Source of the DNA: an uncultured Gemmatimonadaceae bacterium
GTDB taxonomy: Bacteria > Gemmatimonadota > Gemmatimonadetes > Gemmatimonadales > GWC2-71-9
Length of the DNA stretch: 64,000 nucleotides
Reading direction: 5' to 3'
Assembly: GCA_964599725.1 (NCBI GenBank)
Contig: CAZRGT010000007.1
Location: 6,309 to 70,308, forward strand
Below are positions 31,165 to 33,262 of this stretch, in pieces. The notes beneath the pieces are model-generated. The model worked only from the letters and a program-made list of their open reading frames with translations, made no database searches and was not told the origin of the DNA. The stretch's first letter is position 1, and each line of letters starts with the position of its first letter. A program made the translations under genes and the position numbers.

Positions 31165-31209
31165 AGTGGCCAGGGGCAGAATCGAACTGCCGACACGCGG
31201 ATTTTCAGG
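31165..31209 (-). repeat. Orphan copy of the 3' part of tRNA-Phe (att-like direct repeat, copy A)
   Basis: 45/45 nt are identical to 33187..33231. The repeat covers tRNA positions from the anticodon loop to the discriminator base plus 3 nt downstream. The flanks diverge immediately on both sides. Confidence 0.9.
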
Positions 31210-31468
31210 TCACGAGGGCGACGGCACCATCGGGCACCATTAGACACCACGCGCTGCTGCATAAACACTTCGGCCGCCTCTTCCAGCGGCCGTTGTGCTG
31301 TATGGAGGCCGCGCCATCCGGATTGCCAGCCGCCCCAAGGTCGAGGACGCCTGGATCAGCGCGATCTATCGGGAGCTGGGGCGCGACATCCGCCGAGCAG
31401 GTGGTCAGTTGCCTGGCAGACGTAAGCGGGCTGGCGCAGGGTGGTCGAGCCCTCTATGCTGCCCGGCC

Positions 31469-32044
31469 ATGAACGTCTGGGGCTTTGTAGCGCTCACATA
31501 TCACCTGACGAGCCGGCTGGCGTATGTGGTGTGGGTGGGCTGGGCATTGCGGCGCGAACGGCACGCCGGCCACTATGCCCGCACCTACGGCGCCGAGGTG
31601 GGATTCCAGCGCTTCCGCCGCGTCGCGGCCACGCTGATGAACAACGACGGCGTGAGCTTCGTGGTGTTGTGCCTACTCACACGGGGGACGCTCCCGATCG
31701 CGGCGCCCTGGTGGCTTCTGGTCGTGCTCGGCGCGATACTCGCCGGGGTCGGCATCGGCGTGAAGCTCTGGGCGCGGGCCGCGGCAGGATCCGACGGCTA
31801 CTACTGGCGCGACTTTTTCGACACAGCGGCCGCGCCGCTCGAGCCGGCCGCCGGGCCGTATCGCTACCTCAACAACCCGATGTACACGGTGGGGAATCTG
31901 CACCTCTGGGGGCTCGCGCTGGGCGTGGCCTCACTCCCTGGGCTCGGCGCAGCGCTGTTGGACCACGCGGCGATTCTGACTTTCAATCGTGTCGTGGAGC
32001 AGCCGCATGTGAACCGGCACTACCGTGATGCGGCGCGAGGGTAA
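31469..32044 (+). CDS. Membrane methyltransferase-like protein (ICMT/PEMT-like family)
   Basis: The internal ATG gives MNVWGFVALTYHLTSRLAYVVWVGW.. The product is polytopic. The C-terminal region YRYLNNPMYTVGNLHLWGLAL resembles the NPMY region of isoprenylcysteine carboxyl / phospholipid methyltransferases. Confidence 0.55.
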   Translation: MNVWGFVALTYHLTSRLAYVVWVGWALRRERHAGHYARTYGAEVGFQRFRRVAATLMNNDGVSFVVLCLLTRGTLPIAAPWWLLVVLGAILAGVGIGVKLWARAAAGSDGYYWRDFFDTAAAPLEPAAGPYRYLNNPMYTVGNLHLWGLALGVASLPGLGAALLDHAAILTFNRVVEQPHVNRHYRDAARG

Positions 32045-32072
32045 GGGCGGCCGGACGCAGTCCTTAGCTCGG

Positions 32073-32100
32073 TTGACACCCCCACCTGGGCCTGTAGCTT
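32073..32100 (+). promoter_or_regulatory. Sigma-70-like promoter candidate for the 32181 gene
   Basis: TTGACA (32073-32078), a 16-nt spacer, then TAGCTT (32095-32100). It lies 80 nt upstream of the ATG. Confidence 0.4.
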
Positions 32101-32180
32101 CGGCCCCTCGAAACGAGTTCCCCCTACCGCGCCGCAGCATGCGCCCGGTCGTCCGACCAGCCCCTTGAGGAGAGTCCACC

Positions 32181-33026
32181 ATGATGAGAATCACCCGAAC
32201 GCTACTCGCATTGCCGTCGTTGCTGTGTATCGGCGCCACGGCCACCCTGGCGCAGGGCCAGGCGTTGCCGGCAGCGCAGCCGGCGCTGCTCACGATCTTT
32301 CGTGAGCAGGTGAAGGTCGGCCGCGGCGCCGAGCACGAGCGGATCGAGGCGGGGTGGCCCGCGGCGTTCGCGAAGGCTAAGTCCCCGAACTACTACCTTG
32401 CGGCGGTTTCGCTCACGGGAGCGCAGGAAGCCTGGTTCCTCGCGCCGTTCGCGTCCAACGCCGCGTACGGCGACGAGTTGAAGCTGCAGAGCTCCGACAC
32501 GGTGCTGGCCGCCGAGCTGGCACGGCTGGCCCGCGCGGACGCCGAGGTCCTCAACGATTCGCGTACGATTCAAGCGATGGCCCGCACCGATCTGAGCCAC
32601 GGCACTTTCCCCGACCTCGCCAAGGTGCGCTTCTGGGAAATCACGATCTTCCGCGTGCGGCCCGGGCACGAGTCCGAGTTCGAAGCTGCGGCCAAAGTCT
32701 ACGGTGCGGCAACCGACCGGGCGGCGACCGGTTCCACCTACCGCATCTACCAGGTCACGGCCGGGATGCCCGAGCCCACGTTTCTGGTATTCACGTCGGT
32801 CGACTCGTATGCGCAGTTCGACGCGACGATGGCGAATGGGCAGAAGACGATGCAGAGCTTCACGCCCGACGAGCAGGCCACGATGGGGAAATTCTTCACC
32901 GACGGCGTGATCAATTCGGAGACGAACCGCTTCGCGCTCAATCCGACGATGAGCTACGTATCGGCGGAAACGCGGGCGACGGATCCGGCGTTCTGGATGC
33001 CGAAGCGGCCGGCGCGCCGCCCGTAG
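32181..33026 (+). CDS. Hypothetical secreted protein (two tandem alpha+beta modules, tentative)
   Basis: 281 aa with signal peptide LLALPSLLCIGATATLAQG. Two halves of about 110 aa have similar patterns (LLTIFREQVKVGRGAEHE.. and WEITIFRVRPGHESEFE..). I recognise no family. Confidence 0.55.
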   Translation: MMRITRTLLALPSLLCIGATATLAQGQALPAAQPALLTIFREQVKVGRGAEHERIEAGWPAAFAKAKSPNYYLAAVSLTGAQEAWFLAPFASNAAYGDELKLQSSDTVLAAELARLARADAEVLNDSRTIQAMARTDLSHGTFPDLAKVRFWEITIFRVRPGHESEFEAAAKVYGAATDRAATGSTYRIYQVTAGMPEPTFLVFTSVDSYAQFDATMANGQKTMQSFTPDEQATMGKFFTDGVINSETNRFALNPTMSYVSAETRATDPAFWMPKRPARRP

Positions 33027-33052
33027 AGGCAGCGGGGTCGGCAGGGAAGGAA

Positions 33053-33085
33053 AGGGGCGCGTCGCGTTACCGGCGGCGCGCCCCT
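33053..33085 (+). terminator. Hairpin downstream of the 32181..33026 gene
   Basis: AGGGGCGCG-(15 nt)-CGCGCCCCT forms a 9-bp GC stem 27 nt after the stop codon. There is no clear U-tract. Confidence 0.4.
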
Positions 33086-33156
33086 CGCGTGCCAGCGCCC
33101 GACACACCGTTTAAGGGCACACGGACACCCATGATGCGCGGCACACCACGAATGGG

Positions 33157-33181
33157 TAAGGCCGCCTCTGCTGGGGCCTTA
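33157..33181 (-). terminator. Hairpin immediately downstream of tRNA-Phe
   Basis: TAAGGCC-(11 nt)-GGCCTTA lies 9 nt beyond the tRNA 3' end on the tRNA strand. Confidence 0.35.
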
Positions 33182-33189
33182 GCGTGTAG

Positions 33190-33262
33190 TGGCCAGGGGC
33201 AGAATCGAACTGCCGACACGCGGATTTTCAGTCCGCTGCTCTACCAACTGAGCTACCTGGCC
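33190..33262 (-). tRNA. tRNA-Phe (anticodon GAA)
   Basis: The reverse strand reads GGCCAGG-TA-GCTC-AGTTGGTA-GAGC-A-GCGGA-CTGAAAA-TCCGC-GTGTC-GGCAG-TTCGATT-CTGCC-CCTGGCC-A. This is a complete 73-nt cloverleaf with T-loop TTCGATT. CCA is not encoded. Confidence 0.95.

Follow-up and report, generated by a model that had tools for sequence, protein, structure and literature searches.

Does a perfect copy of the 3' part of a tRNA gene, lying 2 kb from the intact gene, mark the two ends of an integrated element? This question is raised by a locus within a 64,000-nt stretch of DNA (the window) from an uncultured Gemmatimonadaceae bacterium. Islands and prophages in tRNA genes are mapped by an intact tDNA and a displaced 3' fragment (the Islander principle; PMC4383910, citing the sublocation classes of Williams 2002), and a preliminary description of the locus had read the 2 kb between the copies as the cargo of an element without an integrase. 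The sequences used for comparison were all metagenomic contigs or MAGs. The features discussed below are listed in Table 1.

A repeat search of the window showed identity at 45 of 45 nt between copy A (31164–31208) and copy B (33187–33231), which are 2023 nt apart from start to start; 100 dinucleotide shuffles gave an expectation of zero chance matches, and no third copy was present in the window at up to three mismatches. Copy A lies one base to the left of the interval first reported (31165–31209), and 1978 nt (31209–33186), rather than 1977, separate the two copies. The tRNA-Phe(GAA), preceded by a promoter-like TTGGCG-17-TATACT (33304–33276; promoter scan), is the only tRNA that ARAGORN predicted in the window, and both copies share its minus-strand orientation on one replicon. 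The tRNA prediction and the alignment agreed with the extent originally assigned to the repeat, from the first base of the anticodon loop (CTGAAAA) to the discriminator base plus 3 nt, and the flanks indeed diverge at once, with a mismatch from the first outside base on both sides. The anticodon loop is a recognised crossover sublocation and corresponds to the commonest class in the Islander collection (2083 of 3919 islands; PMC4383910), in which a 3' fragment was left by 3760 of the 3919 islands. A 5'-half tRNA fragment in another locus, L091, stops at the same anticodon loop. The tRNA-Phe 3' segment was also found in 20 viral contigs of IMG/VR, several of these being 43–48-nt matches at contig ends. 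The position of the core and the recurrence of the adjoining module X83 beside orphan fragments elsewhere (see below) support the proposed attL/attR-type footprint of integrase-mediated recombination.

Table 1. Features of the tRNA-Phe locus, with positions in the window, strand and supporting evidence.
Feature	Position	Strand	Evidence or remark
BON-domain protein gene, conserved left flank	29399–30196	+	PF04972, E = 8e-42
Inferred foreign insertion, ~1.2 kb (FkbM module, orphan, X83 and ~120 bp)	30199–31425		blastn against L082
'U' leader of the FkbM module	30259–30346	+	90–95% identity to L091 1462–1549 and L083 504–577
FkbM-family methyltransferase ORF, chimeric N-terminus	30293–31117	+	PF05050, 29.8 bits (cut-off 22.7)
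Spacer from FkbM stop to orphan, 46 bp	31118–31163		42/46 identical to L083 1477–1522
Orphan tRNA-Phe 3' fragment, attachment core 'R45'	31164–31208	-	45/45 against 33187–33231
X83, arm-like, ~93 nt, in place of the tRNA 5' half	31209–31301	-	74–85% identity to other copies
PEMT/ICMT-family membrane methyltransferase, 191 aa	31469–32044	+	PF04191, 73 bits (cut-off 25)
Secreted two-module protein, 281 aa, signal peptide	32181–33026	+	Modules 351 nt apart; large unannotated Gemmatimonadales family
tRNA-proximal flank, ~100 bp, window only	33086–33186		No match in fetched loci
Intact tRNA-Phe(GAA)	33189–33262	-	ARAGORN; 3' part is copy B (33187–33231)
CapK-like AMP-binding enzyme; together with GT4 and Wzx, the conserved right flank	33335–34948	-	PF00501

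The two closest relatives, L080 and L082, share the order BON–PEMT–secreted protein–[variable gene]–tRNA-Phe–AMP and carry a single copy of the tRNA repeat, without the orphan and without FkbM. The synteny of BON, PEMT and the secreted protein was common to these two relatives only, whose BON gene is 89–92% identical at the nucleotide level and stands immediately before PEMT; Wzx–GT4–AMP–tRNA-Phe synteny was found in L001–L003, L080 and L082. When the window was aligned with L082 using blastn, BON was covered to 30198 and the alignment resumed with PEMT at 31426, the two being separated in L082 by 10 bp (9197–9206). Taking 30199–31425 out of the window thus gives the L082 junction within ~10 bp, which suggests a foreign insertion of about 1.2 kb. 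Its true right edge may lie near 31393, from where the PEMT-upstream spacer is common to L080. Neither a target-site duplication nor clear microhomology was seen at the edges. On the tRNA side, the alignments of L080 and L082 to the window end at 33083–33085, and at the position of the window-only flank the relatives hold a GH1 gene, a 325-aa ORF or a GGDEF/EAL gene. An empty site, in which FkbM would directly follow tRNA-Phe, had been proposed as a check, and none was found among 79 loci encoding relatives of the AMP-binding flank; the tRNA is kept only in L001–L003 of these loci, where the downstream gene differs in each case and is never FkbM.

The interval between the copies does carry the two genes reported, a PEMT-like gene and a gene for a secreted protein with two modules. 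The PEMT profile match spans residues 85–187, and the gene directly follows BON in L080 and L082 as well (89–90% nucleotide identity). The secreted-protein gene is 92–95% identical to its counterparts in L080, L082 and L122, every time on the 3' side of tRNA-Phe. Third-codon identity to L080/L082 was 0.83–0.92 for PEMT, the secreted-protein gene and BON, so that the two bracketed genes have diverged from these relatives as the flanks have. The host-like composition noted earlier was confirmed by GC3 (0.82 for PEMT and 0.87 for the secreted-protein gene; window mean, 0.845). L122 has a canonical orphan–X83 junction with the secreted-protein gene on its chromosomal side. Judged from these sequence comparisons, PEMT and the secreted-protein gene are probably resident chromosomal genes, and their assignment as cargo is probably wrong: both are in place in L080 and L082, and one is host-side in L122. 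The preliminary description had held that relatives carrying both genes and both repeat copies, with no empty-site variant, would speak against an insertion; both genes were indeed in place and no such variant appeared, although only one repeat copy is present there.

The secreted protein belongs to a family for which 1054 homologues were found, and its remoter homologues (75–80%) and the L122 copy (92%) stand in other gene contexts. An exact-match look-up in public assemblies returned no record of the protein; a Pfam search (limit 5) gave a single match, below threshold (PF12120, E = 0.049; 14.3 bits, cut-off 25), and no match was obtained to PDB sequences at E up to 10. A NIPSNAP/dimeric alpha-beta-barrel assignment was not borne out by the Pfam or PDB sequence searches, and a precomputed PF07978 match was recorded for one homologue only (P0077). 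The TTGACA-N16-TAGCTT string described as the gene's own promoter is present at 32073–32100 but was not called by the scan, because its -10 element matches at only three of six positions. Similarly, the hairpin after the gene (33054–33084), reported as a terminator, exists but lacks a T-run.

The FkbM gene, noted previously as lying just outside copy A, ends 46 bp to its left; it appears to be part of the foreign piece rather than the host flank, because the block of FkbM, orphan and X83 in the window is missing from the relatives. Its homologues carry the FkbM name from both JGI and NCBI. The ORF shows a 122–236-bp deletion relative to L083 and L091, which joins the start of the U ORF to FkbM residue ~14; the U leader includes TTGACG-N16/17-TATGGT/TATAGT in L091 and L084, and its -35 element is mutated in the window. 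Nucleotide identity of FkbM was 97.3% to L091 and 96.3% to L083 (third-codon identity, 0.96 and 0.92, respectively), and the module as a whole shares 96–97% identity with its copies in different contexts, against ~90% for backbone genes. Within L083, the BON gene adjoining FkbM has a third-codon identity of 0.80 (from 66 codons only), compared with 0.92 for FkbM. Composition was uninformative for FkbM: its GC content was 0.64 against 0.68 ± 0.02, with a GC3 of 0.80 inside the host range. In L083, the 46-bp spacer likewise precedes an orphan tRNA-Phe fragment. The best reading of these identities is that FkbM was recently acquired.

To the right of the orphan, X83 takes the side expected for the tRNA 5' half, and this position is constant among its copies. 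The sequence is 74–85% identical to that following the orphan tRNA-Phe fragment in L122 and L091 and to L083 416–498, and it also resembles what comes after R47 in L083; all three are Gemmatimonadales contigs. A hairpin at 31271–31292 was called terminator-like in the minus-strand reading, and across five copies its stem is conserved and its loop variable. A tandem GGGGGACAA-N2-3-GGGGGACA motif follows X83 in L122 and L091 and also flanks the intact tRNA-Phe in L003. The GGGGGACAA repeats present in these three loci are absent from the orphan side in the window, and comparison with the fetched loci revealed no recognisable arm on the tRNA side of the interval. By analogy, X83 and the GGGGGACAA motif are putative integrase arm sites. 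The X83 family also shows signs of tandem accretion (L083 reads FkbM–R–X2, and L091 holds two X modules), and the L083 orphan is identical to the L082 tRNA-Phe over 49 of 49 nt, with a T-arm allele differing from that of the window. FkbM and the 46-bp spacer are 91–97% identical to their counterparts and X83 only 74–85%, which suggests that the orphan joins pieces of different histories, as a recombination core would. For a similar reason, the block is now thought less likely to be a circular permutation of one mini-element (X83–U–FkbM–46–R), since X83 is 74–85% identical to FkbM-linked X83 copies and FkbM 96–97%.

Neither X83 nor FkbM occurred in the 20 IMG/VR contigs with the tRNA-Phe 3' pattern; an orphan-specific pattern gave 0 matches in IMG/VR, and an arm-motif pattern gave 107, none related to X83. 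The ~120 bp between X83 and PEMT (31302–31425) and the 62 bp after BON had no match in any fetched locus. The former segment was also compared with BON, as it might be a BON-like pseudogene or a duplicate of the 3' end of that gene; no significant similarity was seen, and both ideas were rejected.

The reported lack of a recombinase was upheld, both for the interval and by a scan of the genes predicted from 2.5 to 56 kb of the window, and a six-frame view of 31200–31480 and Pfam scans revealed no remnants of a decayed ICE or IME. Two IMG/VR contigs with the tRNA allele of the window, L112 and L117, had no recombinase domain beside tRNA-Phe, only an AbiEii toxin, and a partial ORF after the L003 tRNA that looked excisionase-like by eye had no Pfam match. 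The related contigs yielded no integrase of the proposed family, because all informative ones stop short. The window resembles Islander islands in having an intact tRNA gene and a cognate 3' fragment in the same orientation, with a core beginning at the anticodon loop. Unlike such islands, its interval measures only 2 kb, lacks an integrase and holds genes that appear resident by the comparative data; cognate fragment and crossover sublocation thus agree with the Islander definition, and integrase, empty site and distinct composition or divergence do not. Lacking an integrase, the locus would be rejected by the Islander filter. CIMEs, defined in Firmicutes ICE families, are decayed ICEs or IMEs that keep attL and attR but have lost the genes for integration and transfer; they often form tandem accretions, and their movement has been shown (PMC5704250). 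The earlier idea of a minimal cassette using an integrase in trans amounts to this model. The debris in the window is likewise integrase-less, is apparently att-bounded and belongs to a family with signs of tandem accretion. It has two perfect cores, with X83 on the orphan side but without the GGGGGACAA repeats. In contrast to CIMEs, the locus lacks the putative arm motif, and its bracketed genes appear to be syntenic chromosomal genes rather than derivatives of a decayed ICE or IME. Orphan tRNA gene fragments are described in prokaryotic genomes (PMC9897764); like those, the fragment in the window is a partial, non-functional tRNA segment that annotation may mistake or miss, and it differs in that its origin can be tied to a particular arm-like module, X83, common to other loci.

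What was observed directly is the repeat, its boundaries, its association with X83, the synteny and the contrast in divergence. On this basis, we consider it reasonably probable, with some reserve, that the core of a former attachment site survives in the orphan and that the ~1.2-kb block is an immobile composite scar left by tRNA-Phe-specific integrative elements, PEMT and the secreted protein being resident. Recombination of the tyrosine-integrase type at the tRNA-Phe anticodon loop would have left the 45-nt core as the joint of two pieces of debris, with U, FkbM and 46 bp on its left and, on its right, X83, presumably an arm-like module of an element family specific to tRNA-Phe in related Gemmatimonadales. 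The composite would sit in the BON–PEMT spacer, 2 kb off the intact tRNA. A tandem array might have been excised from the tRNA and then reinserted illegitimately, or the array might have been rearranged. The scar is most likely inert, as it lacks an integrase and the GGGGGACAA motif. The resident pair now lies between 45-bp direct repeats, through which homologous recombination could delete it; an integrase acting in trans could also excise it. Several points count against this reading: any mechanism that would lodge an att-containing fragment 2 kb from the tRNA, beyond two resident genes, is hypothetical; the edges show neither target-site duplication nor clear microhomology; the synteny with BON is limited to two close relatives, and more distant secreted-protein homologues stand in other contexts; and no integrase of the family was recovered. 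In addition, X83 lies on the PEMT side, which by analogy with L122 and L091 would make that side the element interior, as in the topology first proposed.

That topology underlies an alternative we regard as unlikely though deserving attention, namely a decayed, CIME-like island in tRNA-Phe that lacks an integrase and spans 31209–33186 (X83, PEMT and the secreted-protein gene), with FkbM as the original downstream flank and the orphan end lost in L080 and L082. Repeat orientation and core boundaries are right for an island, the place of X83 immediately inward of the orphan matches the canonical junctions in L122 and L091, and the tRNA-adjacent position is as variable in relatives as an integration hot spot would be. 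The same FkbM–46 bp–orphan junction is kept in L083, so that FkbM behaves as a stable outer flank in two genomes. However, in L080 and L082 the BON gene is followed in synteny by PEMT and the secreted-protein gene with no repeat present, and a near-exact deletion of FkbM, orphan and X83 would be needed in two lineages separately. The host-side position of the secreted-protein gene in L122, the host-like composition and the flank-like divergence of both genes, against an FkbM that looks recently transferred, also argue against an island. If it predated the L080/L082 split, a neutral 45-mer should have gathered an estimated 2–4 substitutions (at ~5–8% synonymous divergence per lineage); the probability of none is ~0.03–0.1, barring gene conversion.

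Two further accounts dispense with an element altogether. A local, integrase-independent segmental duplication of the tRNA region, with later decay of the 5' half, would fit the faintly tRNA-5'-half-like sequence that was seen by eye after the L083 orphan; it is very improbable, as identity is 100% up to the anticodon loop and drops to background right there, the R–X83 architecture recurs in L122 and L091 beside host flanks that are unrelated, and a decaying copy would not hold 45/45 beside an unrecognisable 5' half. An assembly chimera, in which two contigs were misjoined via the 45-nt repeat and FkbM–R–X83–PEMT exists in no cell, is suggested by the FkbM–46–R–X83 combination and the X83/PEMT-upstream spacer junction, both found in the window only among the fetched loci. 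The half-junctions, however, are attested separately (FkbM–46–R in L083; R–X83 in L122 and L091), both sides run into one syntenic backbone with BON on the left and PEMT on the right, unlike a random misjoin, and assembly k-mers or reads are usually longer than a 45-nt repeat; we rate a chimera as highly unlikely. A mobile form of the block is also conceivable, but seems quite doubtful: an integrase-less mini-element of ~1.2–1.5 kb (leader-promoter, FkbM, core and X arm) hitch-hiking on an undescribed tRNA-Phe-specific family of Gemmatimonadales. The window would then show an intact attP-like joint beside an empty attB, and the resident PEMT and secreted-protein genes would be open to excision or shuffling by any incoming integrase of the family, a chromosomal gene capture in progress.

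Under the favoured reading as a composite scar, the chief value of the locus is cautionary and no general principle is changed. An intact tRNA with a perfect displaced 3' fragment is usually taken to mark both ends of an island; in this case the bracketed genes are probably resident and the foreign DNA lies outside the bracket, so that repeat-based island callers and manual readers would mis-assign the cargo. The locus also offers a first sketch of a putative family of elements that target tRNA-Phe in the little-studied Gemmatimonadota, comprising the core, an X module whose hairpin is conserved and tandem GGGGGACAA repeats, and points to a small FkbM methyltransferase module moving between contexts. 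The U–FkbM module was found in at least five contexts, including IS3-like debris in L084 and, with 77–86% identity, a core PolX–FkbM–RNase HII position.

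The window contains a 45-nt perfect direct repeat (31164-31208 and 33187-33231) of part of tRNA-Phe; none would be expected by chance, and the window holds no third copy even with up to three mismatches allowed. On the tRNA strand, the repeat extends from the opening base of the anticodon loop (CTGAAAA) to 3 nt beyond the discriminator base, and the first bases outside it mismatch on both sides. The preliminary description had the repeat, its tRNA boundaries and its divergent flanks right but placed the displaced 3' fragment (the orphan) one base too far to the right. The commonest class of tRNA integration combines an anticodon-centred core and a displaced 3' fragment (PMC4383910), and the repeat is a true site-specific recombination scar of this class, in agreement with the attachment footprint first proposed. 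As also described, the interval between the copies (31209-33186) holds two genes, encoding a PEMT-family protein and a two-module protein with a signal peptide, and the recombinase is missing: predicted genes scanned from 2.5 to 56 kb of the window carried no recombinase domain. To the left, 46 bp separate the orphan from the end of an FkbM gene. Searches with the secreted protein gave no PDB sequence match and, in Pfam, nothing convincing (best E = 0.049); its family (1054 matches, 60-93% identity, ca. 280 aa) is without a Pfam model or solved relative, close homologues lie in unrelated neighbourhoods in L099, L101 and L122, and a precomputed match to NIPSNAP (PF07978) exists for one homologue (P0077).

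Coordinates of features in the window and in comparison loci (L numbers; Gemmatimonadales MAGs and metagenomic contigs)
Feature	Window	Comparison loci	Remark
tRNA-Phe(GAA)	33189-33262 (minus)		sole tRNA gene of window
X83	31209-31301		93 nt long, directly right of orphan; recurs in other contigs
X hairpin	31271-31292	L091 1260-1292, 2640-2672; L083 461-495; L122 5577-5610, 430-481	
Tandem GGGGGACAA-N2-3-GGGGGACA		L122 5620-5650; L091 1320-1343, 2700-2720; L003 7244-7266 (minus)	
PEMT-family gene	31469-32044		PF04191, 73 bits
Secreted-protein gene	32181-33026		281 aa; modules 351 nt apart
tRNA-Phe-adjacent DNA	33086-33186	L080 10952-12433; L082 10915-11892; L122 3234-5414; L002 after 7275; L003 5463-7121	
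FkbM 5' regions compared	30293-30346	L091 1457-1800; L083 504-700	
Orphan in L091		L091 1155-1199	
tRNA-Phe 5' half		L091 4443-4480	38 nt
IS3-like fragments		L084 1900-2300, 3330-3420	by eye only
TonB-dependent receptor	26104-29223		
DUF4331 ORFs	3802-4368, 4376-5146 (minus)		profile 127-236, 250-420
Sigma-70/ECF-type sigma factors	5950-6627, 13814-14413, 22887-23399, 41748-42290, 48507-49148		
RskA-type anti-sigma gene	13257-13817		

Relatives were found via the AMP-binding flank (Gemmatimonadales MAGs) and via the closest secreted-protein homologues (L080 and L082). L080 (GCA_041478375.1) reads SusD-TBDR-...-BON-reverse ORF-PEMT-secreted protein-GH1-tRNA-Phe-AMP-GT4-Wzx, with a DUF3179-like reverse ORF (assigned by eye), and L082 (JGI 3300037264) reads ...BON-PEMT-secreted protein-325-aa ORF-tRNA-Phe-AMP-GT4-Wzx; each has one tRNA-Phe copy, and both lack the orphan and FkbM. 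The window and L082 align up to 30198, BON included, and from 31426 to 33085, a stretch covering PEMT and the secreted-protein gene; between these matches lie 1227 bp in the window against 10 bp in L082. Thus, the window carries FkbM, the orphan and ca. 217 bp inserted in the BON-PEMT spacer.

Nucleotide (third-codon) identities of the window to L082 and L080 were 0.888 (0.832) and 0.903 (0.849) for PEMT, 0.948 (0.922) and 0.923 (0.875) for the secreted-protein gene (L122: 0.923 (0.854)) and 0.919 (0.906) and 0.898 (0.853) for BON. Therefore, PEMT and the secreted-protein gene diverge like their flanks; as both also occur in L080 and L082 without an orphan, their earlier designation as cargo was not supported. 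FkbM was clearly more similar to copies set in more distant host backbones (L091: 0.973 (0.958); L083: 0.963 (0.923), against 0.904 (0.803) for BON of L083 over 66 codons only), whereas X83, an arm-like module beside the orphan, shared only 74-85% identity with its other copies. The orphan thus joins two pieces of different history, which fits a recombination core.

The X module is always on the side that the tRNA 5' half would occupy. With R as the orphan and U as the FkbM leader, L122 reads Trypsin_2-secreted protein-GGDEF/EAL-R-X83-GGGGGACAAccGGGGGACA up to the contig end, L091 reads host ORFs-R-X83-GGGGGACAAacGGGGGACA-U-FkbM-second X module with the same motif, and L083 reads BON-PEMT 3' remnant-X83-U-FkbM-46 bp-R47-X-like sequence. 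R-X83 in L122 forms a canonical displaced-fragment junction, and the secreted-protein gene is on its host side. The hairpin in X (CTTCGGCCGCC-loop-GGCGGCCGTTG) has a conserved stem, a loop unlike in every copy and a terminator score on the minus strand; a similar hairpin lies 3' of an unrelated gene in L122, and this terminator-like repeat may be in wider use. The GGGGGACAA tandem adjoins tRNA-Phe cores in four places, including, as its reverse complement, the intact tRNA-Phe of L003, and is absent beside X83 of the window. By analogy with the general architecture of tyrosine-integrase attachment sites, X and these repeats may constitute an attachment-site arm, the tandems being candidates for the arm-type sites that an integrase of an undescribed element family would bind. 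No integrase of this family was recovered from the comparison contigs because the contigs end. Orphan T-arm alleles also differ: the window and L122 share GGCAGTTCGATTCTGCC, L083 has the L082 allele (49/49 nt to the L082 tRNA) and L091 a third. ARAGORN found no intact tRNA in L091, where a lone tRNA-Phe 5' half, 3.2 kb from the orphan and in opposite orientation, stops precisely at the anticodon loop (CTGAAAA), with a terminator hairpin behind it; this looks like a metagenomic mis-assembly or an inversion that broke at the attachment core.

We favour, with moderate confidence, a composite scar of tRNA-Phe elements in the BON-PEMT spacer, with PEMT and the secreted-protein gene resident. FkbM, the adjoining 46 bp, the orphan and X83 would together be one composite piece of elements specific for tRNA-Phe. 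It is probably a junction out of a tandem array such as the one in L083 and would now lie between BON and resident PEMT. Neither target duplication nor microhomology was seen at the inserted fragment, and the tRNA-side site (secreted-protein gene, ca. 100 bp, tRNA) looks like an unoccupied attB. The main counter-argument is that X83 is found on that side of the orphan which faces PEMT, as expected if this side were element interior, as in the decayed island initially proposed, which resembles a cis-mobilizable element (CIME). We regard this proposal as unlikely: it requires L080 and L082 each to have undergone an independent, near-exact deletion, it is contradicted by the host-side secreted-protein gene of L122, and as an ancient island it would need a neutral 45-mer to stay perfect (estimated P ca. 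0.03-0.1).

Unlike tRNA islands mapped by the Islander principle, the window candidate lacks an integrase, and no empty site turned up among the relatives compared; the interval would count only as a putative CIME, as defined in PMC5704250. The locus belongs to a known kind, a tRNA integration hot spot that carries a decayed attachment-site scar. Under the composite-scar reading, the genes between the repeats are resident ones and not cargo, and within Gemmatimonadales the comparisons point to a mobile FkbM module as well as an undescribed element family.

The tRNA-Phe-adjacent site is a rearrangement hot spot. L001-L003 keep Wzx-GT4-AMP-tRNA-Phe, with a different gene after the tRNA in each, an additional ca. 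1.6-kb gene between AMP and the tRNA in L003, and GCACAACGA immediately 3' of the tRNA in L001 and L003. Adjacent DNA is unlike in every relative (GH1, a 325-aa ORF without Pfam match, a GGDEF/EAL regulator, a peptidase-like ORF), and the window lacks the variable gene present in L080 and L082.

The leader and FkbM occur in several contexts: beside BON (window, L083), in L091 and L123-125, in the Gemmatimonadales MAG L084 (ca. 91% nt identity) between fragments resembling, by eye, parts of IS3-family transposases (…VIEAWRRKYKDER…, …FTEEQIVGIL…), in another neighbourhood in L126 (ca. 88% nt identity) and at the core position PolX-FkbM-x-RNase HII-L19-TrmD-S16-Ffh (77-86% identity). The window FkbM has a chimeric N-terminus owing to a 122-236-bp deletion relative to its relatives, so that 17 codons from the start of a short upstream ORF (MVGWLTPMQFSQPTLLA) are fused to FkbM residue ca. 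14; the promoter -35 is TTGACG in L091 and L084 and CAACGA in the window.

Elsewhere in the window, the TonB-dependent receptor shares ca. 72% nt identity with L080/L082, against 88-92% for neighbouring genes; it evolves fast or is a replaced allele. Two neighbouring ORFs, matching successive portions of DUF4331, are a split or frameshifted gene. The 64 kb also encode five sigma factors, one of which adjoins the anti-sigma gene.
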